Assembly: GCA_963699255.1 (NCBI GenBank) | Contig: OY969425.1 | Location: 1,230,001 to 1,262,000, forward strand | Direction: 5' to 3' | DNA: 32,000 nucleotides | Source: an uncultured bacterium | GTDB taxonomy: Bacteria; Margulisbacteria; WOR-1; CAVSGV01 | Shown: positions 1,202 to 29,400 of the stretch, piece by piece | Layout of the letters: every line of letters begins with the position of its first letter | How positions within the stretch are numbered: the stretch's first letter is position 1 | The notes under the pieces: model-generated | Database searches by the model: none | What the model was told of the DNA's origin: nothing | The model's input: only the letters and a program-made list of their open reading frames with translations | Translations under genes and position numbers: made by a program

Positions 1202-1909
1202 ATGCTATCAATTATCGTTCCAACATATAATGAGAGCAGGAATATAGAGGCGCTTTTAACGCGTATTTTTACCGCGCTTAAGCCAAATTATACCCCTTAT
1301 GAAGTCATCGTTGTAGATGACAACTCCCCCGACGGAACAGCCCAGATAGCGGAAGCGCTTAAGTCCAAGTTCGACCTCAGGGTAGTGAAACGACCCCGCA
1401 AGATAGGGCTTGCCTCAGCGGTATTGAACGGCTTCAAGCTTGCGACAGGCGATATCCTGTGCGTGATGGACGCTGACCTGAGCCATCCTCCTGAAGCGAT
1501 ACCGGAAATGTACAAGGCGATCAGCAGCGGCGATTTCGAAGTGGTCATAGGCAGCAGGTGCGTTGAAGGAGGCGGGGCCACGAACTGGCCTTGGTACAGG
1601 CGGTTCGGTTCAACCTTTGCGCAGCTGCTCGCAAAGCCCATAACACATGTCAATGACAACACATCAGGATTTTTTATCATCAAAAGAAGCGTCCTTGAAG
1701 GCGCGGACATAAATCCGATAGGGTTCAAGATCCTCCTTGAGATCATCGCTAAGGGGAACTATTCAAAGATCAAAGAAATCCCCATAGTGTTCAATGATCG
1801 CGGCGGCGGCAAGAGCAAACTGGGCATGAAGCAGACAATGGAGTACCTGAAGCAGCTCGGCCTAATTTATTACGGGATATTTTCAGGCAAAATAAAAAGG
1901 AGGAAATAA
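1202..1909 (+). CDS. Family-2 glycosyltransferase, polyprenyl-phosphate sugar transferase type (DPM1/ArnC-like)
   Basis: 235 aa. Motifs IIVPTYNE, VIVVDDNSPDGT and DADLSHPP (DxD), with a short C-terminal amphipathic/basic tail. GAGG lies 6 nt upstream of the ATG. Confidence 0.85.
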   Translation: MLSIIVPTYNESRNIEALLTRIFTALKPNYTPYEVIVVDDNSPDGTAQIAEALKSKFDLRVVKRPRKIGLASAVLNGFKLATGDILCVMDADLSHPPEAIPEMYKAISSGDFEVVIGSRCVEGGGATNWPWYRRFGSTFAQLLAKPITHVNDNTSGFFIIKRSVLEGADINPIGFKILLEIIAKGNYSKIKEIPIVFNDRGGGKSKLGMKQTMEYLKQLGLIYYGIFSGKIKRRK

Positions 1910-8369: not shown

Positions 8370-8822
8370 TCAACCCCTCCTTTTCTTTTTATTCAATCCA
8401 CACCACAAATTATCGCAGCTTGAACAGGCCGTCATCCCGTGCAGGAAAAACCAGCCCCAAAAGAGCGCTATAGAGACCGCCGCTAACAAATAATCCTCGT
8501 AATAAAGCAGGAACGGCACCGGGAACACGGCGACCATAAGCCAGAGAGACGCCAGTAATGCATCCTCCGGATCGGACGGCCCCTCATGCCTCCCATCAAA
8601 AAAATACTTCGAGATCAACCCCCCGAATATATAACATTCTTTTCCAAAATACACGCACCTTGTGCAATAGAGGTACGTGTGAGCAAAAATGACTCCGCCC
8701 GCAAAAATGAAATAAATATACGGCAGAAGGTTGTTGTGCACATACAGCGTAAAAGTCCCGAACAATACGCATATTGCCAGCCCGGGAACGTTCACCAGAC
8801 GGTTAAGATCGCACCTATTCAT
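8370..8822 (-). CDS. Hypothetical Cys-rich polytopic membrane protein embedded in the ilv operon
   Basis: The start is taken at the internal ATG at 8822 (MNRCDLNRL...), which overlaps the ilvN stop as ATGAATAG. The stop lies 1 nt from the ilvC ATG. Several hydrophobic segments, plus CTRCx7C and CSSCx4C motifs. No family recognised. Confidence 0.55.
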
Positions 8823-9297
8823 TTGCTCCTCTTTGCAGGGCGATCTTCCCGGTCCTGACAAGTTCCTTTATGCCGAATTTTCGCAACAGTTTTTCTATGC
8901 CGTCCACCTTGTTCTCTTCTCCGGTCATCTCGATCGTGACCGCTCCCTCGCTCACATCGACTATCCTGCCCCTGAAAATGTCGACGATTTCTATGATCTC
9001 GGGGCGGGTTTTCTCATTGCAACTCACCTTCATCAGCACAAGCTCCCTCTCAACTGCCACGTCATGAGGTATGTCAAATACCTTTATAACGTCTATCAGC
9101 TTGTATAGTTGCTTTGTTATCTGTTCAAGCACAAAGTCATCACCGGAGGCAACTATGGTCATCCTTGATACCGATTCATCCTCCGTAGTCCCGACCGCAA
9201 GGGATTCAATATTATAACCTCGACGCGAGAACAGTCCGGCAACCCTGGCCAGGACGCCGGGTTTATTTTCAACCAGAACTGAAATGGTATGCTTCAT
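8815..9297 (-). CDS. ilvN: Acetolactate synthase small (regulatory) subunit
   Basis: MKHTISVLVENKPGVLARVAGLFSRRGYNIESLAVG... shows the canonical ACT domain of IlvN/IlvH. Confidence 0.94.
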   Translation of the reverse strand: MKHTISVLVENKPGVLARVAGLFSRRGYNIESLAVGTTEDESVSRMTIVASGDDFVLEQITKQLYKLIDVIKVFDIPHDVAVERELVLMKVSCNEKTRPEIIEIVDIFRGRIVDVSEGAVTIEMTGEENKVDGIEKLLRKFGIKELVRTGKIALQRGANE

Positions 9298-11062: not shown

Positions 11063-11063
11063 T

Positions 11064-13093: not shown

Positions 13094-13126
13094 GATTCAA
13101 ATGATTTTTCAACTCATCCCTTGTCC

Positions 13127-16100
13127 CTACTTAGCTTCCAGCTTATCCAGACGGGCTTTCAGCTCTTCATTGATCTTCTTCTGTTCATCGATCTGCCTTT
13201 GCTGCTCTTTTACCGCTTCAACAAGTATGGGTATTAACGTATCGGTATAAAGTGTGGTAGCATAAACTCTATCTTTTCCGTCCTTGCCTGTATAATGATT
13301 CTCGAGTTTTGTACTATCATCATATTTTACCGCTTCCGGCACTTGCTCTCCCACATCTTCGGCGATAAAACCAAGTGTATGCCCGCCGCCATGTTTTTCA
13401 TCCCAATCAAAAGAAACTCCTCTAAGGTTAAGTATCTTATCCAGGGCATCTTTTATTCCCACAACGTTCTTCTTCCATCTTATTGATGAACCTTTCCCGT
13501 AAGTACCGTGGACAGCATAAAAATCGCTACCTGGACTTTCAGCATATACACCATAAGCACTGCCGTAACCATAAGTACCAACATAGCCTACGCCATAGAC
13601 ACCCGCACTCCAGTTAGTATAGTCAGTATTCATACCGCTAACACCGCAGCCATTTGCCCCATGACCTATACCCAAGACACCGGTGCCCAATTTTCCGTTT
13701 TCGCCGATGATGGTTTCCGCTCCTTCGCGATAAGCATAGATGCAACGCCCGGTCTGATAAATGGCGGTTCCACTCCCGCTCAGCCCCGTTCCCATTACAG
13801 TTATTTGAGACTGCGGATTCGTCGTCCCGATACCGACATTGCCGTTATTATCAATGACCATTGATGTATTTGTAATACCAGTAGTGTAGTTATTTGAGGT
13901 TCCAAACATCAATTTTGAACCGCTATTATCAAAATAGGCAGCGATCCTGGCGTTTGGATTAGATCCAGAGCTGTACAGGAAATCTATAGGTGTATAACGT
14001 CCAGCGGTATAAGCACCGCTCAAAGAAAGCATACCTCTTGTTGCACCGGTAAATGTTGAAATTTGACTTCCTTCTACATTTAGTTTGGATGCCGGATTTG
14101 TCGTCCCGATGCCGACATTGCCGTTGTTTAGAATTGTTACTCTATCCGAATAATTATCTATATTGCCTTGCGAACTCAGTGTGCGCAAATAAAGATTACC
14201 GCCTGAAGAACCTCCCCAATCGATCACGCCGTTAGCAGAATTATAAACTAAATGGGTCCCGGAAAGCCGAACATTACCGGCAACATCTAATTTAGTTCCT
14301 GGACCAGTCGTACCGATGCCGACATTGCCGCCTGAAACAAACAAATCATTTGTGTCAACTTTTAAACCGCTTGAGTTCAAATAATACCCCGTGCCGGAAC
14401 ATGCGGTAGCTGTCGCTGATAAAATAGCATAATTTGCGCGTACAGAACACACGGTCGATGTTCCACTCAAATCTGCATAGTTAGCATCCCTCGCGTGACC
14501 CGTACATATGGAAGCTACCGATGATAATATTGCGTAATTTGCCTGCTTGGTACACAGGGTCGATATTCCACTAAGATCCGCATAGTTAGCATCTTTCGCA
14601 TGACCGGTACTGCAATCGCTGGCTGTCGCTGCTAATAATGCGTATGTCGCCTGCTTCGTACACATGGTCGATGTCCCGCTCAATGCCGCATAGTTAGCAT
14701 CTTTCGCATGGCCGGTACTGCAATCGCTGGCTGTCGCTGCTAATAATGCGTATGTCGCCTGCTTCGTACACATGGTCGATGTCCCGCTCAATGCCGCATA
14801 GCTCGCACTATTCGCACTGCCTGTACAGACACTCGATGTGCCTGATAAAGCTGCATATGGCGCTGATCCTGTACAGCTGGATGATGTTCCACTCAATGCC
14901 GCATAGCTCGCGCTATTCGCACTGCCTGTACATATACTTGATATCCCTGATAGGTTTGCATACTTGACTGATCCAGTACATGCCGATGATATCCCGCTAA
15001 GATCCGCGTACTTTACTGATCCTGTACAGGCACTGGATGTTCCTGATAACTCCGCATACTTTACAGATCCGGTACAGCTGGATGCTGTTCCACTCAATGC
15101 CGCATAGCTCGCGCTATTCGCGCTGCCCGTACATATACTTGATATCCCTGATAGTGTTGCATATATAGCATTAGTGCTCGTGGTCGATGTCCCGCTTAAT
15201 ACTGCGTAGCTGACGGTTCCTGTACACCTGGACGATGTTCCGCTTAGATCTGCATACTTTACAGAGCCGGTACAAGTGGATGCGGTTCCACTCAATACTG
15301 CATAATTAACAGTCCCTGTACATGTAGATGCGGTTCCACTCAATACTGCATAATTAACAGTCCCTGTACATGTAGATGCGGTTCCACTTAATACTGAATA
15401 GTTGGAAGTATTCGCGCTACCCGTACAAACACTCGATATCCCTGATAGTGTTGCATAGGAAACCGATCCAGTACAGCTGGATGATGTTCCACTCAATACC
15501 GCGTAGTTAACGGTCCCGGTACACATGGATGCTGTCCCGCTCAACACAGAGTAGTTGGAAGTATTCGCGCTACCCGTACAAACACTTGATGTCCCAGATA
15601 GATTTGCATAAATAGCATTAGTGCTGGTGGTAGATGTCCCGCTCAATACAGCGTAGTTGGATGTGTTCGCATTGCCTGTACAGACACTGGATGCCCCTGA
15701 CAGTGCCGCATAATTGGTTGATCCTGTACAGACAGATGCTGTTCCACTCAATGCTGCATAGTTGGATGTATTAGCGCTACCTGTACACACACTTGATGTC
15801 CCTGACAGTGCCGCATAATTGGTTGATCCGGTACAAATAGATGCTGTCCCGCTCAATGCTGCATAGTTCGCACTATTCGCACTGCCTGTACATACACTTG
15901 ATATCCCTGATAAATTTGCATACTTGGTTGATCCGGTACAAGTGGATGCGGTTCCACTCAATACTGCATAGTTAACAGTCCCGGTACAAGTAGATGCTGT
16001 TCCGCTCAACACAGAGTAGTTCGATGTATTAGCATTACCTGTGCATACACTTGATATACCTGATAGAGCTGCATAATTAGTTGATCCAGTACAGACAGAT

Positions 16101-18199
16101 GCTGTTCCACTCAATACCGCATAATTAACGGTCCCGGTACACATGGATGCGGTCCCACTTAATACTGAATAGTTGGAAGTATTCGCGCTACCCGTACAAA
16201 CACTTGATGTCCCAGATAGATTTGCATAAATAGCATTAGTGCTGGTGGTAGATGTCCCGCTCAATACCGCGTAATTGACGGTCCCTGTACACAGGGATGC
16301 GGTCCCGCTCAACACAGAGTAATTCGATGTATTCGCGTTGCCTGTGCATACACTGGATGTACCTGATAGCGCTGCATAAGTGACAGGCCCTGTACAACTG
16401 GATGCCGTTCCACTCAATACTGCATAGTTTGATGTATTCGCATTTCCTGTACACACACTTGATGTCCCTGACAGTGCCGCATAATTGGTTGATCCGGTAC
16501 AAATAGATGCTGTCCCGCTCAATGCTGCATAGTTCGCACTATTCGCACTGCCTGTACATACACTTGATATCCCTGATAAATTTGCATACTTGGTTGATCC
16601 GGTACAAGTGGATGCGGTTCCACTCAATACTGCATAGTTAACAGTCCCGGTACAAGTAGATGCTGTTCCGCTCAACACAGAGTAGTTCGATGTATTAGCA
16701 TTACCTGTGCATACACTTGATATACCTGATAGAGCTGCATAATTAGTTGATCCAGTACAGACAGATGCTGTTCCACTCAATACCGCATAATTAACGGTCC
16801 CGGTACACATGGATGCGGTCCCACTTAATACTGAATAGTTGGAAGTATTCGCGCTACCCGTACAAACACTTGATGTCCCAGATAGATTTGCATAAATAGC
16901 ATTAGTGCTGGTGGTCGACGTTCCACTCAATGCTGCATAGTTGGATGTATTCGCACTGCCTGTGCATACACTTGATATACCTGATAGTGCTGCATAATTG
17001 GTTGATCCGGTACAAATGGATGCTGTTCCACTCAATACAGCATAGTTGGATGTATTAGCGCTACCTGTACACACACTTGATGTCCCTGACAGTGCCGCAT
17101 AATTGGTTGATCCTGTACAGACAGATGCTGTTCCACTCAATGCTGCATACTTTACTGATCCCGTACAGACAGATGCTGTTCCGCTCAACACAGAGTAGTT
17201 CGATGTATTAGCATTACCTGTGCACACACTGGATATACCTGATAGAGCTGCATAATTAGTTGATCCGGTACAGCTTGATGCTGTTCCACTTAATGCTGCA
17301 TAGTTGGATGTACTCGCGCTACCTGTACATATACTGGATATACCTGATAGATTTGCATAAGTGACAGACCCTGTACAACTGGATGCTGTTCCACTCAATA
17401 CTGCATACTTTACTGATCCCGTACATGCGGATGATGTTCCGCTTAACACTGCATAGTTAACAGTCCCTGTACAGGCTGATGCTGTCCCACTCAATACCGC
17501 ATAGTTTGATGTATTCGCACTGCCTGTGCATACACTTGATATCCCCGATAAAGCTGCATACTTTACCGATCCCGTACACGCGGATGATGTTCCGCTCAAT
17601 GTCGCATAGTTCGCGGTTACTGATACTGATGTGGAGGTCACATTGATAAGCGCCGAGCCATCTCCGTAATATTTACCTGTCGACCCCTCTATGGATGCTC
17701 CCATAGCTCCCACCTTAAGATTCCCTGTTATATTGGCGTTTGCCGTCTGCGCTTCCGTTGTGTTCATGATGTACCTTAGATCCGCATCTCCCTCTGAGAT
17801 ACCTCCTCCGCCTCCACCCATCCCCGATTCTGATGATATCGCCCTGAACGCGTACGGTGCCGCCGCCAGCAGCTGGTGCGGCGTCATGTCTTCTCCCCCA
17901 ACGTTCAGCCCGATCTCATATTGATTGCTGAAATCTACGCTAGTGGGAATAGGACCCAGCATTTCATTGATGTTCCCCTGACTGTCAGGAGTAACCGTTG
18001 ATGTCTGCGACCACAGCGATGTCCCGCTGGATGAATCGTACAGCGTGAAGATTATCACCTTGGGGTCTGTGATAGGCAGGCCGCTTGTTTTGTCCAGTAA
18101 CCTACCTTGAAAATATATGGTGCGGGGGATAGCTGCAAGAACGGAGAAAGATAATATCGTCAGGAAAACAAAGAAAAAGAAAAACACCTTTTTTTGCAT
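13127..18199 (-). CDS. Giant secreted repeat protein A (1690 aa): conserved N-terminal module, about 63 single-Cys repeats, GNVGIGTT joints, C-terminal Peptidase_S74-like chaperone tip
   Basis: 5.07-kb uninterrupted ORF. GGAGG RBS. Sec-type signal peptide (MQKKVFFFFFVFLTILSFSVLA|A). The C-terminus SSIRWKKNVVGIKDALDKILNLRGVSFDW...GFIAEDVGEQVPEAV...coiled-coil matches the intramolecular-chaperone auto-processing domain of endosialidase/tail-fibre proteins. Confidence 0.88.
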   Translation of the reverse strand: MQKKVFFFFFVFLTILSFSVLAAIPRTIYFQGRLLDKTSGLPITDPKVIIFTLYDSSSGTSLWSQTSTVTPDSQGNINEMLGPIPTSVDFSNQYEIGLNVGGEDMTPHQLLAAAPYAFRAISSESGMGGGGGGISEGDADLRYIMNTTEAQTANANITGNLKVGAMGASIEGSTGKYYGDGSALINVTSTSVSVTANYATLSGTSSACTGSVKYAALSGISSVCTGSANTSNYAVLSGTASACTGTVNYAVLSGTSSACTGSVKYAVLSGTASSCTGSVTYANLSGISSICTGSASTSNYAALSGTASSCTGSTNYAALSGISSVCTGNANTSNYSVLSGTASVCTGSVKYAALSGTASVCTGSTNYAALSGTSSVCTGSANTSNYAVLSGTASICTGSTNYAALSGISSVCTGSANTSNYAALSGTSTTSTNAIYANLSGTSSVCTGSANTSNYSVLSGTASMCTGTVNYAVLSGTASVCTGSTNYAALSGISSVCTGNANTSNYSVLSGTASTCTGTVNYAVLSGTASTCTGSTKYANLSGISSVCTGSANSANYAALSGTASICTGSTNYAALSGTSSVCTGNANTSNYAVLSGTASSCTGPVTYAALSGTSSVCTGNANTSNYSVLSGTASLCTGTVNYAVLSGTSTTSTNAIYANLSGTSSVCTGSANTSNYSVLSGTASMCTGTVNYAVLSGTASVCTGSTNYAALSGISSVCTGNANTSNYSVLSGTASTCTGTVNYAVLSGTASTCTGSTKYANLSGISSVCTGSANSANYAALSGTASICTGSTNYAALSGTSSVCTGSANTSNYAALSGTASVCTGSTNYAALSGASSVCTGNANTSNYAVLSGTSTTSTNAIYANLSGTSSVCTGSANTSNYSVLSGTASMCTGTVNYAVLSGTSSSCTGSVSYATLSGISSVCTGSANTSNYSVLSGTASTCTGTVNYAVLSGTASTCTGTVNYAVLSGTASTCTGSVKYADLSGTSSRCTGTVSYAVLSGTSTTSTNAIYATLSGISSICTGSANSASYAALSGTASSCTGSVKYAELSGTSSACTGSVKYADLSGISSACTGSVKYANLSGISSICTGSANSASYAALSGTSSSCTGSAPYAALSGTSSVCTGSANSASYAALSGTSTMCTKQATYALLAATASDCSTGHAKDANYAALSGTSTMCTKQATYALLAATASDCSTGHAKDANYADLSGISTLCTKQANYAILSSVASICTGHARDANYADLSGTSTVCSVRANYAILSATATACSGTGYYLNSSGLKVDTNDLFVSGGNVGIGTTGPGTKLDVAGNVRLSGTHLVYNSANGVIDWGGSSGGNLYLRTLSSQGNIDNYSDRVTILNNGNVGIGTTNPASKLNVEGSQISTFTGATRGMLSLSGAYTAGRYTPIDFLYSSGSNPNARIAAYFDNSGSKLMFGTSNNYTTGITNTSMVIDNNGNVGIGTTNPQSQITVMGTGLSGSGTAIYQTGRCIYAYREGAETIIGENGKLGTGVLGIGHGANGCGVSGMNTDYTNWSAGVYGVGYVGTYGYGSAYGVYAESPGSDFYAVHGTYGKGSSIRWKKNVVGIKDALDKILNLRGVSFDWDEKHGGGHTLGFIAEDVGEQVPEAVKYDDSTKLENHYTGKDGKDRVYATTLYTDTLIPILVEAVKEQQRQIDEQKKINEELKARLDKLEAK
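13130..13489 (-). other. Peptidase_S74-like intramolecular chaperone (auto-processing) domain of giant A
   Basis: It shows the S-x-R-x-K-x-N...L..L..V.F.W...GFIA(E/Q).V....PE.V pattern, ending in a heptad-like DEQKKINEELKARLDKLEAK. Recognised from memory of the family; not verified by HMM. Confidence 0.7.
14387..17608 (-). repeat. In-frame tandem array of about 63 units of 48/57 nt (16/19 aa) in giant A
   Basis: Units counted by hand from the translation: YAxLSG[T/I]xSxCTG plus a 3-aa or 6-aa linker. Four Cys-less 15-aa units (YAVLSGTSTTSTNAI). Confidence 0.9.
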
Positions 18200-18361: not shown

Positions 18362-19355
18362 TTACGGATTCCAAATATCGCTTGAAGAGGACCAGACATC
18401 GTGAAGATAACTCCCCCCCATTACCCACATCTTATTCTTATAAACAACTGAACCAAGGCCATCACGGGCTGCCCAGCCGGCGGCGGCAGTTGCCTGGGTC
18501 CATGTAATTCCGTCAGTAGAATACCAGACATCATTCCTCTCCCATTGTCCAACAACATTCCCGTATCCCCCCATCACCCACATTTTATTATCAAAGACCT
18601 GTGCGGTGTGCCACGCCCGTCCCGGCCAGTTGGCAGCAGCTGTTACCTGTCATCCAGGTAACGCCGTCTGAAGATGACCATACATCGTTCCGATAGCCGG
18701 TACTAAGCCCCCCATACCCACCTCCAAGCAGCCACATTTTATTGTTAAAGACCAATGATCTGCTCCCCTCACGGTTGTACCATTCAACAGAGGTTTCCGG
18801 TTTCCAAGTAACACCGTCCGTAGAGGACCAGACAGGATTAGTTTGGGCGGTTGAATGGTCCGTCATCATCCACATTTTATTATTAAAAACCAATACTGAA
18901 GGACCTTGCATTAGTCCCCAACCGGCAGCAGCTGTTACCTGTGTCCAGGTAACGCCGTCCGAAGAAGACCAGACATCGTTCAAAGCTTTCGTGTTAGAAT
19001 CATATCCTCCCAATACCCACATTTTGTTGTTAAAGACCACCGCAGCGAAGTTAGTTCGGGCTGTCCAACCGGCAGCAGCTGTTGCCTGTGTCCAGGTAAT
19101 GCCGTCTGAAGATGACCATACATCGCTCTTGTAGTTAGAACTACCAACACGCCCACCGATCACCCACATTTTATTGTTAAACACCAATGTGGAAAAACTT
19201 TCGCGGCCTGGCCAGCCGGCGGCAGAAGTTACCTGAGTCCAGGTGGATCCGGCTGCGGCAAATACCGTTCTTGCTACAAGAAGTTGGAAAAGAAAGAGCA
19301 AAAACAATATTAAGATGTGAGATGAGAAATGAGAGATGAGAGTGGGTTTTCGCAT
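18362..19355 (-). pseudogene. Secreted six-blade Kelch-type beta-propeller protein, interrupted by a 1-nt frameshift near 18651-18653
   Basis: ORFs 18591..19376 and 18362..18583 carry the same about 47-aa repeat (DVWSSSDG[VI]TWTQ.TAAAGW.....VFNNKMWV.GG). Intact blades read ...acctgtGTccagg, while blade 5 reads ...acctgtCATccagg (one extra nt). The likely start is the ATG at 19355 (GAGG RBS, signal peptide). This could be a real pseudogene or a sequencing error. Confidence 0.75.
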
Positions 19356-19384
19356 CCCATACCTCACACTTTGCATCTCTTGTT

Positions 19385-22300
19385 TTACTTTCCTTTCTTT
19401 TTATCTTGCACAGGAACCAGCGGAGGAATATCCGCGCGCACGGCTTCAACTCTCCAGTAGAATTTCTGGGAGGGGTTTCCGTCGGAGGTGGTGCTGACTG
19501 TAAATTTGCAGTTCTCGATCTTGCCTGCAACATAGAGCGGGGAATATCCGTCCACACAGGTCAGCTGGACAGTTCGCCCTTCTTTTCTGGTGAGGGCTTC
19601 AAAATATTCCGGCAGCTGTATTTCTTTCTTTGAACCGGACAGTTGGTCCTCACCCCGATAAAAGACCGCGTGTTCCGGACCCTCCAATGCGCCGTGAACT
19701 AATGTTTTGTTTTTCGGATCCAGCGGGTCAGGTATCTCAAAGTTCTTGTAGGTCGCGGCAAATCCGCCGGCAACCTGAAGCGTGTATTGTGGATTTGTCG
19801 TCCCGATGCCGACGTTGCCGCCTACAAAATAAGAATTACCGGAACGATTCAAAACAAATTTATCAACACCAGTTTGACCAATGGTAAGGCCACCTAGACC
19901 ATCGTAAACCATTTCATAATAGTTGGTGCCGCCATCAGTCAAACGAATACCATATCCGTAATTAGCTCCTGACCCGTTGACAGTTAGCTTCGCTCCCGGA
20001 CTCGTCGTCCCGATGGCCACGCGGCCGCTGTTGTAGTAAATATCACTTCCGCTCGTGCCCCATTGACCTGAAGGCCAAGAAGTTCTAGGAACCCCGCCAA
20101 GGGTAAGACCGTTTGTGTCAATTTTAACTGTGCCAGTGGTATTTGCACAGTTACTCGCAATTCTACACAGATCCGCATAGTTCGCGTCCCTCGCATGACC
20201 CGTACATGTGCTAGCTACCGATGATAATATTGCGTAATTTGCCTGCTTGGTACACAAGGTCGATATCCCGCTCAATACTGCATAGTTCGAGTCATTTGCA
20301 TGACCCGTACATGTGGTAGCTACTGATGATAATAACGCGTATGTTGCCTGCTTGGTACACAAGGTCGATATCCCGCTCAATACTGCATAGTTCGAGTCAT
20401 TTGCATGACCCGTACATGTGGTAGCTACTGATGATAATAACGCGTATGTTGCCTGCCTGGTACACATGGTAGATGTTCCACTCAGATCTGCATAGTTTGC
20501 ACTCTTAGCATTACCTGTACAGACACTTGATATCCCTGATAGGGCCGCATACGGTGCTGATCCTGTACATACAGATGCTATGCCACTCAACGCCGCATAG
20601 TTCGCACTCTTCGCACTACCTGTACAGACACTTGATATCCCTGATAGGGCCGCATACGGTGCTGATCCTGTACATACAGATGCTATGCCACTCAACGCCG
20701 CATAGTTCGCACTCGTCGCATTACCTGTACAGACACTTGATATCCCTGATAGGGCTGCATACGGCGCTGATCCACTACAGCTGGATGCTATTCCACTAAG
20801 ATTTGCATAGTTCGCACTCGTCGCATTACCTGTACAGACACTTGATATCCCTGATAGGGCTGCATACGGCGCTGATCCACTACAGCTGGATGCTATTCCA
20901 CTAAGATTTGCATAGTTCGCACTCTTCGCGCTACCCGTACAAATACTTGATATTCCTGACAGTGCTGCATACGGCGCTGATCCACTACAGCTGGAGGCTG
21001 TTCCACTCAATGCCGCATAGTTCGCGCTATTCGCGCTGCCTGTACATATACTTGATATCCCTGATAGTGTTGCATATATAGCATTAGTGCTCGTGGTCGA
21101 TGTCCCGCTCAATACTGCGTAGCTGACGGTTCCTGTACACCTGGACGATGTTCCGCTTAGATCTGCATACTTTACAGAGCCGGTACAAGTGGATGCGGTT
21201 CCACTCAATACTGCATAGTTAACAGTCCCGGTACAAGTAGATGCTGTTCCGCTTAACACTGCATAATTAACAGATCCCGTACAAGTGGATGCGGTCCCAC
21301 TTAATACTGAATAGTTGGAAGTATTCGCATTACCTGTACATACACTTGATATTCCTGATAGTGCTGCATACGGCGCTGATCCTGTACATATAGATGCTGT
21401 TCCACTCAATGCGGCATAGTTCGCACTATTCGCACTGCCTGTGCATACACTTGATGTCCCAGATAGATCCGCATACTTAGTCGATCCTGTGCAGACAGAT
21501 GCGGTCCCACTCAATACCGCATAATTGGATGTATTTGCACTACCTGTACAAATGCTTGATGTGCCTGATAGTGTTGCATACGGCGCTGATCCGGTACATA
21601 CAGATGCTGTTCCGCTCAATGCGGCATAGTTCGCACTATTCGCACTGCCTGTACAAATGCTTGATGTCCCTGATAGTGTTGCATAAACAGCATTAGTGCT
21701 GGTGGTCGATGTGCCACTCAATACTGCGTAGCCAGCTGTTTTAGCATTGCCTGAACATGTACTTGATATCCCAGACAGATCCGCATACTTAGTCGATCCT
21801 GTACAGACAGATGCGGTCCCACTTAATACTGAATAGTTGGAAGTATTCGCATTACCTGTACATACACTGGATGTCCCTGATAGTGCTGCATACTTGGTTG
21901 ATCCGGTACAGCTTGATGCTGTCCCGCTCAATACTGCATAGTTTGATGTATTCGCATTTCCTGTACAGACACTTGATGTCCCCGATAGATTTGCATAAAT
22001 AGCATTAGTGCTGGTGGTCGACGTCCCGCTCAATACCGCATAGTTGGATGTATTAGCATTACCTGTGCAGACACTTGATGTACCTGATAGTGTTGCATAA
22101 GGGACAGATCCTGTACATGTAGATGCTGTTCCACTCAATACCGCGTAATTGACGGTCCCTGTACACAGGGATGCGGTCCCGCTCAACACAGAGTAATTCG
22201 ATGTATTCGCGTTGCCTGTGCATACACTGGATGTACCTGATAGTGCTGCATACTTGGTTGATCCGGTACAGCTTGATGCTGTCCCGCTCAATACTGCATA

Positions 22301-24430
22301 GTTTGATGTATTCGCGCTACCCGTACAAACACTTGATGTCCCAGATAGTGTTGCATAAATAGCATTAGTGCTGGTGGTCGATGTACCACTCAATACTGCG
22401 TAGCCAGCTGTTTTAGCATTACCTGTGCAGACACTGGATGTCCCCGATAGATCCGCATACTTAGTCGATCCTGTACAGACAGATGCTGTTCCACTCAATA
22501 CTGCATAGTTAACAGTCCCGGTACACAGGGATGATGTCCCGCTCAACGCAGAGTAGTTTGATGTATTCGCATTTCCTGTACAGACACTTGATGTCCCTGA
22601 CAGTGCCGCATAATTGGTTGATCCCGTACAGACAGATGCTGTGCCGCTCAACACAGAGTAGTTCGATGTATTAGCATTACCTGTGCACACACTGGATATA
22701 CCTGATAGTGCTGCATAAATAGCATTAGTGCTGGTGGTCGATGTACCACTCAATACTGCGTAGCCAGCTGTTTTAGCATTACCTGTGCAGACACTGGATG
22801 TCCCCGATAGATCCGCATACTTAGTCGATCCTGTACATGTGGATGCTGTTCCACTCAATACTGCATAGTTAACAGTCCCGGTACACAGGGATGATGTCCC
22901 GCTCAACGCAGAGTAGTTTGATGTATTCGCATTTCCTGTACAGACACTTGATGTCCCTGACAGTGCCGCATAATTGGTTGATCCCGTACAGACAGATGCT
23001 GTGCCGCTCAACACAGAGTAGTTGGATGTATTAGCATTACCTGTGCACACACTGGATATACCTGATAGTGCTGCATAAATAGCATTAGTGCTGGTGGTCG
23101 ATGTCCCGCTCAATACCGCATAATTGACAGTCCCTGTACACAGGGATGCGGTCCCGCTCAACACAGAGTAATTCGATGTATTCGCACTGCCTGTGCATAC
23201 ACTGGATGTACCTGATAGTGTTGCATAAGGGACAGATCCTGTACAAATAGATGCTGTCCCACTCAACGCAGAGTAGTTTGATGTATTCGCATTTCCTGTA
23301 CAGACACTTGATATACCTGACAGTGCTGCATAATTGGTTGATCCGGTACAAATAGATGCTGTTCCACTCAATGCTGCATACTTTACTGATCCCGTACAGA
23401 CAGATGCTGTTCCGCTCAACACAGAGTAGTTCGATGTATTAGCATTACCTGTGCACACACTGGATATACCTGATAGAGCTGCATAATTAGTTGATCCGGT
23501 ACAGCTTGATGCTGTTCCACTTAATGCTGCATAGTTGGATGTACTCGCGCTACCTGTACATATACTGGATATACCTGATAGATTTGCATAAGTGACAGAC
23601 CCTGTACAACTGGATGCTGTTCCACTCAATACTGCATACTTTACTGATCCCGTACATGCGGATGATGTTCCGCTTAACACTGCATAGTTAACAGTCCCTG
23701 TACAGGCTGATGCTGTCCCACTCAATACCGCATAGTTTGATGTATTCGCACTGCCTGTGCATACACTTGATATCCCCGATAAAGCTGCATACTTTACCGA
23801 TCCCGTACACGCGGATGATGTTCCGCTCAATGTCGCATAGTTCGCGGTTACTGATACTGATGTGGAGGTCACATTGATAAGCGCCGAGCCATCTCCGTAA
23901 TATTTACCTGTCGACCCCTCTATGGATGCTCCCATAGCTCCCACCTTAAGATTCCCTGTTATATTGGCGTTTGCCGTTTGCGCTTCCGTTGTGTTCATGA
24001 TGTACCTTAGATCCGCATCTCCCTCTGAGATACCTCCTCCTCCTCCACCCATCCCCGATTCTGATGATATCGCCCTGAACGCGTACGGTGCCGCCGCCAG
24101 CAGCTGGTGCGGCGTCATGTCTTCTCCTCCAACGTTCAGCCCGATCTCATACTGATTGCTGAAATCTACGCTAGTGGGAATAGGACCCAGCATTTCATTG
24201 ATGTTCCCCTGACTGTCAGGAGTAACCGTTGATGTCTGCGACCACAGCGATGTCCCGCTGGATGAATCGTACAGCGTGAAGATTATCACCTTGGGGTCTG
24301 TGATAGGCAGGCCGCTTGTTTTGTCCAGTAACCTACCTTGAAAATATATGGTGCGGGGGATAGCTGCAAGAACGGAGAAAGATAATATCGTCAGGAAAAC
24401 AAAGAAAAAGAAAAACACCTTTTTTTGCAT
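19385..24430 (-). CDS. Giant secreted repeat protein B (1681 aa): same N-terminal module, about 72 single-Cys repeats, distinct C-terminal 'FEIPDPLDP...YFEAL' tip
   Basis: 5.05-kb uninterrupted ORF. The first about 359 aa are identical to giant A in the supplied translations. After the array come two GxVxIGTT joints and then a unique about 118-aa terminal domain. Confidence 0.88.
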   Translation of the reverse strand: MQKKVFFFFFVFLTILSFSVLAAIPRTIYFQGRLLDKTSGLPITDPKVIIFTLYDSSSGTSLWSQTSTVTPDSQGNINEMLGPIPTSVDFSNQYEIGLNVGGEDMTPHQLLAAAPYAFRAISSESGMGGGGGGISEGDADLRYIMNTTEAQTANANITGNLKVGAMGASIEGSTGKYYGDGSALINVTSTSVSVTANYATLSGTSSACTGSVKYAALSGISSVCTGSANTSNYAVLSGTASACTGTVNYAVLSGTSSACTGSVKYAVLSGTASSCTGSVTYANLSGISSICTGSASTSNYAALSGTASSCTGSTNYAALSGISSVCTGNANTSNYSVLSGTASVCTGSVKYAALSGTASICTGSTNYAALSGISSVCTGNANTSNYSALSGTASICTGSVPYATLSGTSSVCTGSANTSNYSVLSGTASLCTGTVNYAVLSGTSTTSTNAIYAALSGISSVCTGNANTSNYSVLSGTASVCTGSTNYAALSGTSSVCTGNANTSNYSALSGTSSLCTGTVNYAVLSGTASTCTGSTKYADLSGTSSVCTGNAKTAGYAVLSGTSTTSTNAIYAALSGISSVCTGNANTSNYSVLSGTASVCTGSTNYAALSGTSSVCTGNANTSNYSALSGTSSLCTGTVNYAVLSGTASVCTGSTKYADLSGTSSVCTGNAKTAGYAVLSGTSTTSTNAIYATLSGTSSVCTGSANTSNYAVLSGTASSCTGSTKYAALSGTSSVCTGNANTSNYSVLSGTASLCTGTVNYAVLSGTASTCTGSVPYATLSGTSSVCTGNANTSNYAVLSGTSTTSTNAIYANLSGTSSVCTGNANTSNYAVLSGTASSCTGSTKYAALSGTSSVCTGNANTSNYSVLSGTASVCTGSTKYADLSGISSTCSGNAKTAGYAVLSGTSTTSTNAVYATLSGTSSICTGSANSANYAALSGTASVCTGSAPYATLSGTSSICTGSANTSNYAVLSGTASVCTGSTKYADLSGTSSVCTGSANSANYAALSGTASICTGSAPYAALSGISSVCTGNANTSNYSVLSGTASTCTGSVNYAVLSGTASTCTGTVNYAVLSGTASTCTGSVKYADLSGTSSRCTGTVSYAVLSGTSTTSTNAIYATLSGISSICTGSANSANYAALSGTASSCSGSAPYAALSGISSICTGSAKSANYANLSGIASSCSGSAPYAALSGISSVCTGNATSANYANLSGIASSCSGSAPYAALSGISSVCTGNATSANYAALSGIASVCTGSAPYAALSGISSVCTGSAKSANYAALSGIASVCTGSAPYAALSGISSVCTGNAKSANYADLSGTSTMCTRQATYALLSSVATTCTGHANDSNYAVLSGISTLCTKQATYALLSSVATTCTGHANDSNYAVLSGISTLCTKQANYAILSSVASTCTGHARDANYADLCRIASNCANTTGTVKIDTNGLTLGGVPRTSWPSGQWGTSGSDIYYNSGRVAIGTTSPGAKLTVNGSGANYGYGIRLTDGGTNYYEMVYDGLGGLTIGQTGVDKFVLNRSGNSYFVGGNVGIGTTNPQYTLQVAGGFAATYKNFEIPDPLDPKNKTLVHGALEGPEHAVFYRGEDQLSGSKKEIQLPEYFEALTRKEGRTVQLTCVDGYSPLYVAGKIENCKFTVSTTSDGNPSQKFYWRVEAVRADIPPLVPVQDKKKGK
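19388..19741 (-). other. C-terminal tip domain of giant B (uncharacterised family; FEIPDPLDPKNKTLVHGALEGPEHAVFYRG...LPEYFEAL...)
   Basis: I recall the F-x-I-x-[HD]-P-L-D-P...E-[GS]-P...Y-[RN]-G...LP-[DE]-YFEAL pattern from the C-termini of fibre-like hypothetical proteins in other bacteria. No named family can be assigned without an HMM search. Confidence 0.45.
20132..23839 (-). repeat. In-frame tandem array of about 72 units (16/19 aa) in giant B
   Basis: Same unit consensus. Six Cys-less units. Contains 360-bp, 105-bp and 108-bp higher-order tandem duplications. Confidence 0.9.
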
Positions 24431-24843: not shown

Positions 24844-27800
24844 CTAATATTCCACAAGCACAAATCCTTGCGTGCCATTGCCGGCATTATGTTGATAGCC
24901 GCCGGAACCGCCGCCACCGTAGCCATAGGCAGCAGTAACGCTACCATCCTCAAAGTAGAAGCCGCCACCACCAAAAGCGCTTCCGCCGCCTCTACTTGTA
25001 TTTGCGCCGCAAGTATCCTGTCCTCTCCCGCCATTAACGCCGCCGGTACAGTTAGTGCATGTGCCACCATTACCGCCATGGCCACCGTTGCCGCCGGTAT
25101 AGCCGGAGTAGCCAGCGCTACCGCCACCAGCCACATAACTCCCAAAAGATGAATCACCGCCGGGATTCCCCCACTCAGTAGCGCCAAGTTGACCGCCGGT
25201 GCCACCCTGGCCAACACCTACCGAAATACTTGCTCCGGGAGTTACACTCACACTTTCTGCTATAACAGCGGCCCCGCCGCCGCCACCGCCACCGTAATAG
25301 TTGCGGCCTGTGCCGCCGCCACCACCACCACCGCACATTGTAACCCATACTGTTTTCACTCCACTGGGTACAGTGAATGTTCCGCCAGATATGAAACGCT
25401 GTTTGCCGTGTGAAGAAATAAGTGTGCCATTATTATAGATTCCACCTGATGCATTTATCGCTCCGCCCTGAACATCTACTTTATATCCTGGATTCGTCGT
25501 CCCGATTCCGACATTGCCAACAGAATCTATGACCATTGATGTATTTGTAATACCAGTAGTGTAGTTATTTGAGGTTCCAAACATCAATTTTGAACCGCTA
25601 TTATCAAAATAGGCAGCGATCCTGGCGTTTGGATTAGATCCAGAGCTGTACAGGAAATCTATAGGTGTATAACGTCCAGCGGTATAAGCACCGCTCAAAG
25701 AAAGCATACCTCTTGTTGCACCGGTAAATGTTGAAATTTGACTTCCTTCTACATTTAGTTTGGATGCCGGATTTGTCGTCCCGATGCCGACATTGCCGTT
25801 GTTTAGAATTGTTACTCTATCCGAATAATTATCTATATTGCCTTGCGAACTCAGTGTGCGCAAATAAAGATTACCACCTGAAGAACCTCCCCAATCGATC
25901 ACGCCGTTAGCAGAATTATAAACTAAATGGGTCCCGGAAAGCCGAACATTACCGGCAACATCTAATTTAGTTCCTGGACCAGTCGTACCGATGCCGACAT
26001 TGCCGCCTGAAACAAACAAATCATTTGTGTCAACTTTTAAACCGCTTGAGTTCAAATAATACCCGGTGCCGGAACATGCGGTAGCTGTCGCTGATAAAAT
26101 AGCATAATTTGCGCGTACAGAACACACTGTCGATGTTCCACTCAAATCTGCATAGTTAGCATCCCTCGCGTGACCCGTACATATGGAAGCTACCGATGAT
26201 AATATTGCGTAATTTGCCTGCTTGGTACACAGGGTCGATGTCCCGCTCAATGCCGCATAGTTAGCATCTTTCGCATGACCGGTACTGCAATCGCTGGCTG
26301 TCGCTGCTAATAATGCGTATGTCGCCTGCTTCGTACACATGGTCGATGTCCCGCTCAATGCCGCATAACTCGCACTATTCGCACTGCCTGTACAGACACT
26401 CGATGTGCCTGATAAAGCTGCATATGGCGCTGATCCTGTACAGCTGGATGATGTTCCACTCAATGCCGCATAGCTCGCGCTATTCGCACTGCCTGTACAT
26501 ATACTTGATATCCCTGATAGGTTTGCATACTTGACTGATCCAGTACATGCCGATGATATCCCGCTAAGATCCGCGTACTTTACTGATCCTGTACAGGCAC
26601 TGGATGTTCCTGATAACTCCGCATACTTTACAGATCCGGTACAGGCGGATGATGTTCCACTCAATGCCGCATAGCTCGCGCTGTTCGCACTGCCTGTACA
26701 TATACTTGATATCCCTGATAGTGTTGCATATATAGCATTAGTGCTCGTGGTCGATGTCCCGCTTAATACTGCGTAGCTGACGGATCCTGTACACCTGGAC
26801 GATGTTCCGCTTAATGTCGAATAAGAAACAGCCCCAGTACAGCTGGATGATGTTCCACTCAATACTGCATAGTTAACAGTCCCGGTACAAGTAGATGCTG
26901 TTCCGCTTAACACTGAATAATTAACAGATCCCGTACAAGTGGATGCGGTCCCACTTAATACTGAATAGTTGGAAGTATTCGCGCTACCCGTACAAACACT
27001 TGATATCCCTGATAGTGTTGCATAGGAAACCGATCCAGTACATGTGGATGCTGTTCCACTCAATACCGCATAATTAACGGTCCCGGTACACATGGATGCT
27101 GTCCCGCTCAACACAGAGTAGTTGGAAGTATTCGCGCTACCCGTACAAATGCTTGATGTCCCTGATAGTGTTGCATATATAGAATTAGTGCTGGTGGTCG
27201 ATGTCCCGCTTAATACCGCATAGTTAACAGTCCCTGTACACATGGATGCTGTTCCACTTAACACTGCATAGTTGGCACTATTCGCACTGCCTGTACAAAT
27301 GCTTGATGTCCCTGATAGTGTTGCATAAACAGCATTAGTGCTGGTGGTCGATGTGCCACTCAATACTGCGTAGCCAGCTGTTTTAGCATTGCCTGAACAT
27401 GTACTTGATATCCCAGACAGATCCGCATACTTAGTCGATCCTGTGCAGACAGATGCGGTCCCACTCAATACCGCATAATTGGATGTATTTGCACTACCTG
27501 TACAAATGCTTGATGTGCCTGATAGTGTTGCATAAATAGAATTAGTGCTGGAGGTTGATGTCCCGCTCAATACCGCATAGTTAACAGTCCCTGTACACAT
27601 GGATGCTGTTCCGCTTAACACTGAATAATTAACAGATCCCGTACAAGTGGATGCTGTCCCACTCAACACAGAGTAGTTGGATGTATTAGCGCTACCTGTA
27701 CAGACGCTTGATATACCTGATAGTGCTGCATAATTGGTTGATCCGGTACAGACAGATGCTGTTCCACTCAATGCTGCATAGTTGGATGTATTAGCGCTGC

Positions 27801-29400
27801 CTGTGCATACACTTGATATCCCTGATAAATTTGCATACTTGGTTGATCCGGTACAAACAGATGCGCTCCCACTCAATACCGCATAATTGGAAGTATTCGC
27901 ATTGCCTGTACACACACTTGATATACCTGATAGTGCTGCATAATTGGTTGATCCGGTACAGCTTGATGCTGTCCCACTCAACGCAGAGTAGTTGGATGTA
28001 TTAGCGCTGCCTGTGCACACACTTGATATCCCTGATAAATTTGCATACTTGGTTGATCCGGTACAAATAGATGCTGTTCCACTCAATGCTGCATAGTTGA
28101 CGGTCCCGGTACATATAGATGCTGTCCCACTCAACACAGAGTAGTTCGATGTATTAGCGCTGCCTGTGCATACACTTGATATACCTGATAAAGCTGCATA
28201 ATTGGTTGATCCGGTACAAATGGATGCTGTTCCACTCAATGTGGCATAGTTCGCACTATTCGCACTGCCTGTGCACACACTTGATGTCCCTGACAGTGCC
28301 GCATAATTGGTTGATCCGGTACAAATAGATGCTGTTCCACTCAATGCTGCATACTTTACTGATCCCGTACAGACAGATGCTGTTCCGCTCAACACAGAGT
28401 AGTTCGATGTATTAGCATTACCTGTGCACACACTGGATATACCTGATAGAGCTGCATAATTAGTTGATCCGGTACAGCTTGATGCTGTTCCACTTAATGC
28501 TGCATAGTTGGATGTACTCGCGCTACCTGTACATATACTGGATATACCTGATAGATTTGCATAAGTGACAGACCCTGTACAACTGGATGCTGTTCCACTC
28601 AATACTGCATACTTTACTGATCCCGTACATGCGGATGATGTTCCGCTTAACACTGCATAGTTAACAGTCCCTGTACAGGCTGATGCTGTCCCACTCAATA
28701 CCGCATAGTTTGATGTATTCGCACTGCCTGTGCATACACTTGATATCCCCGATAAAGCTGCATACTTTACCGATCCCGTACACGCGGATGATGTTCCGCT
28801 CAATGTCGCATAGTTCGCGGTTACTGATACTGATGTGGAGGTCACATTGATAAGCGCCGAGCCATCTCCGTAATATTTACCTGTCGACCCCTCTATGGAT
28901 GCTCCCATAGCTCCCACCTTAAGATTCCCTGTTATATTGGCGTTTGCCGTCTGCGCTTCCGTTGTGTTCATGATGTACCTTTGGTCCGCATTCCCTTGGG
29001 CGATACCTCCTCCTCCTCCCATCCCCGATTCTGATGATATCGCCCTGAACGCGTACGGTGCCGCCGCCAGCAGCTGGTGCGGCGTCATGTCTTCTCCCCC
29101 AACGTTCAGCCCGATCTCATATTGATTGCTGAAATCTACGCTCGTGGGAATGGGACCCAGCATTTCATTGATGTTCCCCTGACTGTCAGGAGTAACCGTT
29201 GATGTCTGCGACCACAGCGATGTCCCGCTGGATGAATCGTACAGCGTGAAGATTATCACCTTGGGGTCTGTGATAGGCAGGCCGCTTGTTTTGTCCAGTA
29301 ACCTACCTTGAAAATATATGGTGCGGGGGATAGCTGCAAGAACGGAGAAAGATAATATCGTCAGGAAAACAAAGAAAAAGAAAAACACCTTTTTTTGCAT
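24844..29400 (-). CDS. Giant secreted repeat protein C (1518 aa): same N-terminal module, about 54 single-Cys repeats, same pre-tip region as A, glycine-rich tail-fibre-type tip
   Basis: 4.56-kb uninterrupted ORF. The N-terminus is identical to A and B except for a short patch (GMGGGGGIAQGNADQRY). The C-terminus RFISGGTFTVPSGVKTVWVTMCGGGGGGG...VSVTPGASISVGVGQGG...GFVLVEY matches the glycine-rich domain seen at phage tail-fibre C-termini. Confidence 0.88.
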   Translation of the reverse strand: MQKKVFFFFFVFLTILSFSVLAAIPRTIYFQGRLLDKTSGLPITDPKVIIFTLYDSSSGTSLWSQTSTVTPDSQGNINEMLGPIPTSVDFSNQYEIGLNVGGEDMTPHQLLAAAPYAFRAISSESGMGGGGGIAQGNADQRYIMNTTEAQTANANITGNLKVGAMGASIEGSTGKYYGDGSALINVTSTSVSVTANYATLSGTSSACTGSVKYAALSGISSVCTGSANTSNYAVLSGTASACTGTVNYAVLSGTSSACTGSVKYAVLSGTASSCTGSVTYANLSGISSICTGSASTSNYAALSGTASSCTGSTNYAALSGISSVCTGNANTSNYSVLSGTASVCTGSVKYAALSGTASICTGSTNYAALSGTSSVCTGSANSANYATLSGTASICTGSTNYAALSGISSVCTGSANTSNYSVLSGTASICTGTVNYAALSGTASICTGSTKYANLSGISSVCTGSANTSNYSALSGTASSCTGSTNYAALSGISSVCTGNANTSNYAVLSGSASVCTGSTKYANLSGISSVCTGSANTSNYAALSGTASVCTGSTNYAALSGISSVCTGSANTSNYSVLSGTASTCTGSVNYSVLSGTASMCTGTVNYAVLSGTSTSSTNSIYATLSGTSSICTGSANTSNYAVLSGTASVCTGSTKYADLSGISSTCSGNAKTAGYAVLSGTSTTSTNAVYATLSGTSSICTGSANSANYAVLSGTASMCTGTVNYAVLSGTSTTSTNSIYATLSGTSSICTGSANTSNYSVLSGTASMCTGTVNYAVLSGTASTCTGSVSYATLSGISSVCTGSANTSNYSVLSGTASTCTGSVNYSVLSGTASTCTGTVNYAVLSGTSSSCTGAVSYSTLSGTSSRCTGSVSYAVLSGTSTTSTNAIYATLSGISSICTGSANSASYAALSGTSSACTGSVKYAELSGTSSACTGSVKYADLSGISSACTGSVKYANLSGISSICTGSANSASYAALSGTSSSCTGSAPYAALSGTSSVCTGSANSASYAALSGTSTMCTKQATYALLAATASDCSTGHAKDANYAALSGTSTLCTKQANYAILSSVASICTGHARDANYADLSGTSTVCSVRANYAILSATATACSGTGYYLNSSGLKVDTNDLFVSGGNVGIGTTGPGTKLDVAGNVRLSGTHLVYNSANGVIDWGGSSGGNLYLRTLSSQGNIDNYSDRVTILNNGNVGIGTTNPASKLNVEGSQISTFTGATRGMLSLSGAYTAGRYTPIDFLYSSGSNPNARIAAYFDNSGSKLMFGTSNNYTTGITNTSMVIDSVGNVGIGTTNPGYKVDVQGGAINASGGIYNNGTLISSHGKQRFISGGTFTVPSGVKTVWVTMCGGGGGGGTGRNYYGGGGGGGAAVIAESVSVTPGASISVGVGQGGTGGQLGATEWGNPGGDSSFGSYVAGGGSAGYSGYTGGNGGHGGNGGTCTNCTGGVNGGRGQDTCGANTSRGGGSAFGGGGFYFEDGSVTAAYGYGGGGSGGYQHNAGNGTQGFVLVEY
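24847..25398 (-). other. Glycine-rich C-terminal tip domain of giant C
   Basis: G-x-F-T-V-P-x-G-V...V-x-x-x-G-G-G-G-G-G...V-T-P-G...V-G-x-G-G pattern, recognised from memory of 'glycine-rich domain-containing' tail-fibre proteins. Not verified by HMM. Confidence 0.6.
26061..28812 (-). repeat. In-frame tandem array of about 54 units (16/19 aa) in giant C
   Basis: Same unit consensus. Four Cys-less units (STSSTNSI / STTSTNAV / STTSTNSI / STTSTNAI variants). Confidence 0.9.

Follow-up and report, generated by a model that had tools for sequence, protein, structure and literature searches.

In a 32,000-nucleotide (nt) stretch of the chromosome of an uncultured bacterium of the Margulisbacteria (contig OY969425.1, positions 1,230,001 to 1,262,000; hereafter, the window), three giant open reading frames (ORFs), referred to as A, B, and C, encode proteins with a long tandem repeat of mostly 16 or 19 residues that carries one cysteine in nearly every unit. 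The repeat is unnamed and extremely rare, and its putative cysteine ladder is unusual. Our preferred reading, to which we give a probability of about 0.55, is that it forms an uncharged, beta-structured, and probably trimeric shaft in which the cysteine is a buried ladder residue. We read A, B, and C as surface fibers put together from tail-fiber components, in which a common stalk bears three different tips.

Unit structure, rarity, and evolution of the repeat

Units were called by regular-expression segmentation of the translated minus-strand ORFs at Y-[AS]-x-L, and unit lengths were taken as the start-to-start intervals between units, which amounted to 186 intervals across A, B, and C. The resulting counts of 63, 72, and 54 units, which hold only if the assembly of the arrays is correct, and the array coordinates (Table 1) agree within 3 nt with those of a preliminary description made from the sequence alone. 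The consensus unit reads Y-A-x-L-S-G-T-a-S-x-C-T-G and is followed by a linker of 3 or 6 residues. Units of 16 (n = 100) and 19 (n = 69) residues predominate among the 186, the others being 15 (n = 14) or 20 (n = 3) residues long. Since two 19-residue units are never consecutive in the arrays, the commonest DNA period is 105 nt (16 + 19 residues), and super-repeats of 153, 258, and 360 nt are also present. The 6-residue linkers of the 19-residue units (S/N-A-N-T-S-N) create 22 to 34 N-x-S/T sequons per protein.

Column counts over the 186 units were 186 for both Y1 and L4, 183 for S5, 178 for G6, 176 for T12, 172 for C11, and 159 for G13, and the two glycines described earlier as standing 7 positions apart are thus found at positions 6 and 13. 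The preliminary description had also claimed exactly one cysteine per unit; this is the case for 172 of the 186 units (92%), whereas the other 14 carry a serine instead, and no unit has two cysteines. All 14 Cys-less units are of the 15-residue YAVLSGTSTTSTNAI type, and their serine codon, AGC, is one step from TGC. Outside the arrays, cysteine is absent from the 197-residue N-terminal part and occurs only 2 to 4 times in the C-terminal parts. The near-absence of charge was borne out as well, K, R, D, and E together making up 2.5% of the repeat region, with about half of the arrays' charged residues falling in the last 8, divergent units. A set of 213 distinct units drawn from 10 proteins was used to compute position entropy. 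The only high-entropy positions of the core are x3 (2.9 bits) and x10 (3.2 bits), both of which accept D, E, K, R, or N, and positions 1, 2, 4, 5, 6, 9, 11, and 13 are near-invariant. At position 11, 204 of these distinct units have C, 9 have S, and none has any other residue. The 13-residue core can be divided into two half-units of the form [A/S]-x-[L/C]-[S/T]-G, in which C11 is the counterpart of L4. Tandem units of 15 to 22 residues with Y1, L4, S5, G6, S/T9, C11, and G13 define a new fiber-repeat family.

The unfamiliarity of the repeat, first noted by eye, held up in profile and database searches. The main repeat matched nothing in Pfam, whether whole proteins (E ≤ 0.01) or repeat fragments (E ≤ 10) were used, and the repeat region matched no NCBIfam or PHROG family. 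Likewise, no PDB chain was retrieved by the unit profile (E ≤ 10), the repeat had no tblastn match in 50,697 phage genomes, and the repeat motif strings returned nothing relevant in the literature searched. The final 6 to 8 units diverge in each array (MCTKQATYALLAATASDCSTGHAKDAN; Table 1), and the few K, Q, H, D, and R residues of the arrays are concentrated in them, with a spacing of C-x15-C-x2/3-H; where shaft and tip meet, they may act as a cap or as a small metal site. The EsV-1-7 motif (PF19114, EsV_1_7_cys) was considered as the identity of the repeat and rejected, its signal being limited to these terminal units, at or below the threshold, while the main repeat is unmatched. With the cut-off at 25 bits, whole B scored 27.3 bits, without any single stretch that passes, and the terminal units of A scored 24.2 bits. 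The EsV-1-7 motif is C-x4-C-x16-C-x2-H, the first cysteine of which is missing from the terminal units.

The arrays are a real coding repeat under purifying selection. The 119 distinct 39-nt cores encode only 57 distinct peptides and share a mean nucleotide identity of 65%; the proportions of synonymous (pS) and nonsynonymous (pN) differences, calculated by the Nei-Gojobori method, were 0.66 and 0.23, for a pN/pS of 0.35, and both AGY and TCN serine codons are present at identical invariant serine columns. These values substantiate the earlier remark that the units differ heavily at synonymous positions while the peptide is kept, with selection acting on the protein. At a larger scale, some internal blocks of the arrays are 90 to 94% identical, indicating recent copies. 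Given that heavy synonymous divergence coexists with such recently copied blocks, the arrays appear to mix old and young duplications that evolve in concert. Over their first ~1.25 kb, plus ~95 nt upstream, A, B, and C are 94 to 97% identical in DNA (approximately 16950-18295, 23180-24525, and 28150-29495, minus strand), which suggests gene conversion or a very recent duplication of the promoter, the N terminus, and the first ~17 units.

Among the explanations weighed here, the least probable is that the array lengths and the triplication are an assembly artifact of a repetitive region, or that the genes are decaying and unexpressed. It could account for the fact that related metagenome contigs are short and broken inside repeats, one of them (L012) with frameshifts, that the neighboring Kelch gene is split, and that contigs assembled from short reads of this sample measure only 1.4 to 2.3 kb. 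However, all three ORFs are intact over 1,518 to 1,690 codons, encode a typical signal peptide, and have an AGGAGG ribosome-binding site that lies 8 nt ahead of the ATG; the pN/pS given above also speaks against decay. Moreover, intact homologous ORFs exist elsewhere (L002, 1,298 residues; P0006, 2,760 residues on a 613-kb contig), and the source contig itself spans 1.77 Mb.

Homologs, cysteine conservation, and terminal domains

A profile of 35 columns, corresponding to one double unit of 16 + 19 residues, was used in a HMMER search of 1.84 billion representative proteins, only 9 of which matched at E ≤ 0.001. A metagenome scan added four short contigs (L009 to L012) with 46 to 63% identity. 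Two further metagenome matches, L013 and L014, were spurious, lying out of frame in a high-GC formate dehydrogenase region. Word-indexed searches are insensitive for these low-complexity sequences, as they returned 2 matches for the repeat, 1 for the Cys-poor repeat of P0007, and 0 for the N-terminal domain despite its real relatives.

Cysteine at position 11 is maintained in the close relatives, namely, in 52 of 52 units of the L002 ORF, 14 of 14 in P0004, 13 of 14 in P0003, and 8 of 9 in P0005. The anticipated conservation of the cysteine in homologs is therefore true at this distance, but it breaks down further away, in P0006 (21 of 49 units, with Ala in 23) and P0007 (3 of 19, with Ala in 13); P0002, a phage tail fiber, has it in 2 of 5 units and P0009 in 3 of 4. 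In the homologs compared, the cysteine is always paired with a glycine at +2 (C-[ST]-G), and the Cys-less units of the distant relatives are shorter (mostly 12 to 15 residues), with Ala as the usual residue at the equivalent position. Because distant relatives mix the Cys-type unit with these shorter ones, it is a single subtype within a broader Y-A-x-L-[SA]-G fiber repeat, and the shafts in the clade of A, B, and C consist almost entirely of this subtype. On a phage contig, P0002 comes immediately behind baseplate genes (Dit-like, Pam3_gp18, and E217_GP41), and its non-repeat part matches annotated tail fibers of deposited phages. A fiber-like ORF from IMG/VR (L006) carries a simpler Y-A-x-x-A-G repeat without cysteine.

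In P0004 (850 residues), P0003, and P0005, the Cys repeat is also found in blocks of 4 to 5 units between "GNVGIG…" and "GAGKVLTSDANGLATWQ" modules, and these proteins end in yet other C-terminal tips. As it occurs in such short blocks interleaved with other modules, the repeat block behaves as a transferable module, and the exchange of tips seems to be general in the family.

The arrays of A, B, and C are flanked by an N-terminal domain that is common to the three proteins and by C-terminal tips that differ (Table 1). The first 197 residues are identical in A and B, and C departs from them at a few residues beyond position ~128. The N-terminal domain is 52% identical to that of P0004 and 37% to that of P0006, and its relatives in metagenome-assembled genomes (MAGs) of "uncultured bacterium" or Candidatus Margulisiibacteriota are 29 to 32% identical. 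In L003, it heads a 2,292-residue protein of fiber modules. In L004, which comes from a Candidatus Margulisiibacteriota MAG, the domain gives way to a collagen-like G-X-Y array, after which come GNVGIGTT modules. The L004 protein (7403-16780) exceeds 3,100 residues and runs off the contig end; the collagen array stands where A, B, and C have the Cys repeat, and dozens of GNVGIGTTxP modules are punctuated by "GTGKYYGDGSALTGI" motifs. The collagen triple helix is an obligate trimer.

The tip of A comprises GNVGIGTT modules and a Peptidase_S74 domain, and the region of the latter is covered by a match to phrog_33119, "long tail fiber protein distal subunit" (E = 1.6e-7). In C, GNVGIGTT modules precede a glycine-rich part, and the tip matches phrog_6202, "tail fiber protein" (E = 1.1e-10), while the tip of B matches phrog_28536 (E = 1e-15) and phrog_17490 (E = 1e-13), both phage families of unknown function. 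According to Pfam, S74 is found in A only and is absent from B and C. The S74 intramolecular-chaperone domain marks trimeric fibers in known proteins. The "SSIRWKK" string at the start of the S74 domain of A resembles the Ser...Lys dyad region.

Table 1. Coordinates of the fiber genes, their parts, and other features in the window
Feature	Coordinates	Strand	Description
Giant ORF A	13127..18199	-	1690 aa; signal peptide, N-terminal domain, Cys-repeat shaft, GNVGIGTT modules, Peptidase_S74 C terminus
Giant ORF B	19385..24430	-	1681 aa; N terminus as in A; C-terminal tip differs
Giant ORF C	24844..29400	-	1518 aa; N terminus as in A and B; glycine-rich C-terminal tip
Repeat array of A	14384..17608	-	63 units, aa 198-1272 (segmentation, composition)
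Repeat array of B	20132..23839	-	72 units
Repeat array of C	26059..28812	-	54 units
Last 8 divergent units of A	14384..14800	-	aa 1134-1272; K/Q/H/D/R, C-x15-C-x2/3-H spacing, weak EsV_1_7_cys match
Divergent terminal units of B	20132..20500	-	
Divergent terminal units of C	26059..26370	-	
Signal peptide and ~125-aa N-terminal domain (in A)	17825..18199	-	Common to P0004, P0006, L003, and L004
Peptidase_S74 domain of A	13325..13489	-	aa 1571-1625; PF13884, 46.4 bits (cut-off 22), profile positions 1-58
Kelch-repeat gene between B and A	18362..19376	-	Split into two ORFs in different frames
PorV/PorQ-family outer-membrane beta-barrel gene	29626..30669	-	Adjoins C upstream; NF033709, 102.6 bits (cut-off 90)
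299-aa protein, FlgD-Ig-like/type IX secretion system (T9SS) type A sorting domain	30837..31736	-	Pfam FlgD_ig; TIGR04183, 24.5 bits (cut-off 23)
GT2 glycosyltransferase gene	1202..1909	+	Not adjacent to the fiber genes
163-aa TTG-start ORF	8370..8861	-	Flanked by ilvC and the gene for the acetolactate synthase small subunit; no Pfam match

Predicted fold and role of the cysteine

Monomer structure prediction, as proposed in the preliminary description, was performed on two fragments with AlphaFold2. Both models are all-beta, but their confidence is low: units 1 to 14 of A gave a predicted local distance difference test (pLDDT) score of 67.2 and a predicted TM-score (pTM) of 0.57, and residues 1119 to 1328 of B gave 58.9 and 0.48, respectively. 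The models show approximately one strand region of 12 to 14 residues per unit, with loops at the linkers. Foldseek comparison with the PDB returned nothing significant (best E values of 0.24 for the A model and 2e-3 for the B model, TM-scores ≤ 0.3). In both lists, the top non-significant neighbors were beta-solenoids: the left-handed helices of GlmU and LpxD, the trimeric autotransporter adhesin (TAA) heads CbpF, BoaA, and BpaC, HxuA, tapirin, and the Lolium ice-binding protein, and the search against BFVD yielded uncharacterized phage proteins only. The idea that the repeat is a fiber shaft resembling a beta-roll fits the S74 domain of A, the PHROG matches of the tips, the phage fiber P0002, and the collagen array of L004, and is in line with the all-beta models and their non-significant neighbors.

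We propose that A, B, and C would be three paralogous, Sec-exported, phage-tail-fiber-like cell-surface fibers, with the repeat as their shaft module. The N-terminal domain would constitute the cell-proximal end, possibly acting with the adjacent PorV/PorQ-family protein, and the long uncharged shaft of 54 to 72 units would project exchangeable tail-fiber-like tips from the cell surface. Each unit would consist of two short beta-strands, each closed by a glycine turn, followed by the variable loop of 3 or 6 residues. A2 and L4 of the first strand and S9 and C11 of the second would face one tightly packed interior or interface, whereas x3 and x10 would point outward, as they alone vary freely, and the invariant tyrosine would form an external or interface ladder. 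Stacking of C11 would then produce a buried cysteine ladder like that of the Listeria protein InlJ rather than a reactive site. C11 is assigned to a packed core position because the half-unit symmetry pairs it with L4 and because its replacements are only Ser, or mostly Ala in the distant relatives, the pattern expected where packing leaves little steric room. Position 11 is thus most likely buried as judged from its substitutions; the evidence leans toward ordinary packing as the role of the cysteine, which we favor over a disulfide, metal, or redox role. We infer a fold of about one beta-solenoid-like rung per unit, a trimeric state, and a function in adhesion or reach. The shaft would measure ~30 nm if one unit corresponds to one rung and ~80 nm with a beta-spiral-like rise.

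Several observations weigh against this proposal. Both models are of low confidence and have no significant structural neighbor, and the fixation of the cysteine within the clade, as counted above for the four close relatives, exceeds what packing alone requires. In addition, C-[ST]-G units recur in the distant P0002, P0008, and P0009, and the cysteine could have a specific chemical role. Finally, trimerization is suggested directly only for A, since B and C lack S74.

The same observations bear on an intertwined trimer, of the triple beta-spiral or beta-helix type, in which axial Cys3 metal sites or inter-chain or inter-layer disulfides would staple the fiber. We regard this as possible but rather unlikely. 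Trimer indicators are present in A (S74) and at the same position in L004 (collagen), cysteine conservation is very strong in the clade, the C-[ST]-G units recur in distant homologs including a phage fiber, and a low monomer pLDDT is expected if the fold needs three chains; the terminal units also add histidine with a C-x15-C-x2-H spacing. Metal sites on a fiber axis have a precedent in phages, since the T4 gp37 tip holds His-coordinated iron ions. In contrast, half or most of the units in the long arrays of P0006 and P0007 lack cysteine, which would leave gaps in a continuous chain, and the 14 Cys-to-Ser units of A, B, and C have been tolerated and duplicated. The half-unit symmetry sets the cysteine in place of leucine, a packing residue, and no thiol-oxidoreductase or metal-handling gene was found in the window. 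The stronger version, in which 54 to 72 in-register cysteines per chain line the trimer axis as a continuous Cys3-metal or redox-active thiol/disulfide ladder, appears decidedly more doubtful. If true, such an axial chain would be an extracellular metal-loaded or redox-switchable filament tens of nanometers long, undescribed for any fiber protein, and any metal binding or disulfide formation by the cysteines would make the repeat much more interesting.

Post-translational chemistry on the S/T/C-rich units, either lanthionine-like thioethers or dense glycosylation, might instead define the structure, although we see scarcely more chance of this than of an assembly artifact. Ser or Thr lies 2 to 4 residues from the cysteine in every unit, the sequons counted above fall mostly in the 19-residue linkers, and a GT2 glycosyltransferase gene is present in the window. 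However, that gene is 11 kb off, on the opposite strand and amid housekeeping genes, no lanthipeptide synthetase or dehydratase gene was found in the window, and Sec-exported giants differ from known precursors of ribosomally synthesized and post-translationally modified peptides.

Genomic neighborhood and comparison with known systems

The locus is chromosomal, on a contig of 1.77 Mb, with ilvD, ilvB, ilvH, ilvC, dxr, thrS, and infC downstream. Upstream of C, the gene order of sorting-domain protein, PorV/PorQ-family protein, and giant fiber recurs in L003 (3184-12175), from an unrelated MAG, where the fiber has the same N-terminal domain, the PorV/PorQ equivalent scored 101.3 bits, and the sorting domain scored 22.8 bits, just under the cut-off of 23. 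The NCBIfam scan detected no T9SS sorting domain of type A (TIGR04183) or type B at the C terminus of A, B, or C. The locus as a whole looks like a cell-surface attachment system derived from tail-fiber parts, in which tips would be swapped on a common shaft. This small-genome bacterium devotes ~15 kb to three fibers with identical stalks, different phage-like tips, and a PorV/PorQ-type neighbor. The Kelch-repeat gene between B and A comprises a 261-residue ORF with a signal peptide (18591-19376) and a 73-residue ORF (18362-18583) that continues the Kelch repeats; the split results from a frameshift, from decay into a pseudogene, or from an error in the sequence. The TTG-start ORF listed in Table 1, which shares 47 nt with the 3′ end of the gene for the acetolactate synthase small subunit, is possibly not a genuine gene. 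Scanning the window with Rfam and for tRNAs gave no hits.

If the structural reading is true, the repeat is an undescribed and very rare shaft repeat, represented by about a dozen sequences among billions, in which a cysteine ladder takes over half of the hydrophobic core. It would then add to the building blocks of beta-fibers, next to the triple beta-helix, the beta-spiral, the YadA roll, and the ice nucleation protein (INP) solenoid, and could be used as a scaffold in which addressable thiols recur regularly, one per ~0.5 to 1.3 nm.

YadA-head and Hep_Hag repeats form a left-handed parallel beta-roll with 14 to 16 residues per rung. The repeat of A, B, and C resembles them in unit length, in glycine turns ~7 residues apart, and in the alternation of small and hydrophobic residues; TAA heads are among the non-significant neighbors of the models, and P0006 has YadA-like repeats and repeats of the present type in one protein. 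The likeness to YadA heads drawn in the preliminary description did not extend to the sequence level, as hhalign gave a probability of 0.03 against the YadA-like repeats of P0006, and neither Pfam YadA_head (PF05658) nor Hep_Hag matched A, B, and C (E ≤ 0.01) or the repeat fragments (E ≤ 10). Unlike YadA-type adhesins, A, B, and C are without a TAA membrane anchor, no such family having been found by Pfam and NCBIfam scans, and the invariant Tyr and Cys are absent from the YadA repeat.

The central domain of INPs (PF00818) contains 65 tandem 16-residue coils of consensus AGYGSTQTAGEESSLT (PMC9418140, PMC3196904) and has been modeled as a solenoid with an external tyrosine ladder and divergent terminal rungs (PMC3196904, PMC9418140). 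Similarities to this domain include the 16-residue period, a comparable number of units, richness in S, T, G, A, and Y with few charges, one invariant Tyr per unit, and divergent, more charged last repeats (PMC9418140). However, INPs have no cysteine, no 19-residue variants, and no signal-peptide and tail-fiber architecture, and AlphaFold is reported to give the INP solenoid, whereas the models of the present repeat are of low confidence.

It is very improbable that the repeat is a water- or ice-organizing or surface-patterning beta-solenoid in the manner of INPs or of beetle antifreeze proteins, in which T-C-T rungs have their cysteine inward. The 16-residue unit and the copy number (54 to 72, compared with 65) would suit this explanation, as would the nearly uncharged S/T/G/A/Y-rich composition, the invariant tyrosine, the more charged divergent last 6 to 8 units, and the sequence T/V/S/I-C-T at positions 10 to 12. 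Against it stand the lack of any Pfam Ice_nucleation match, an hhalign probability of 0.01 against 10 consensus copies (AGYGSTxTAxxxSxLT), and the high variability of the putatively outward position 10, which would leave no regular T-x-T array; the tail-fiber-like tips and S74 point instead to a fiber with a binding end.

Leucine-rich repeats (LRRs) of Listeria InlJ stack a cysteine ladder (Bublitz et al. 2008, cited in PMC3196904). In this bacterial surface protein, one cysteine per rung replaces a core hydrophobic residue and gives a stacked, reduced ladder, which is the role proposed here for C11 relative to L4. InlJ differs in its LRR fold of 21 to 22 residues and its ~15 rungs, against 54 to 72 units here, and no LRR family matches A, B, and C.

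The triple beta-spiral of the adenovirus fiber and reovirus sigma1 (15 to 20 residues) shares with the repeat its unit length, a variable loop, two short strands parted by a conserved Gly/Pro turn, and the context of a trimeric fiber. It has another consensus and no cysteine, and Adeno_shaft, the Pfam family of the adenovirus and reovirus spirals, matched neither A, B, and C nor the repeat fragments.

Phage and endosialidase fibers with S74-type domains include the L-shaped tail fiber of T5 and the K1F endosialidase. A shares the S74 domain with them, all three tips match phage PHROGs, two of which are annotated as tail fibers, and the overall plan, in which a long repetitive shaft carries an exchangeable tip, is common to both. 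A, B, and C differ in being chromosomal, among ilv, dxr, thrS, and infC, in their Sec signal peptides, and in their non-phage N-terminal domain, and their shaft repeat, as stated above, matches no PHROG and none of the phage genomes searched; its distant homolog P0002 is a real phage tail fiber. The type of object is already known, namely, the repetitive beta-structured shaft of a tail-fiber-like surface protein.

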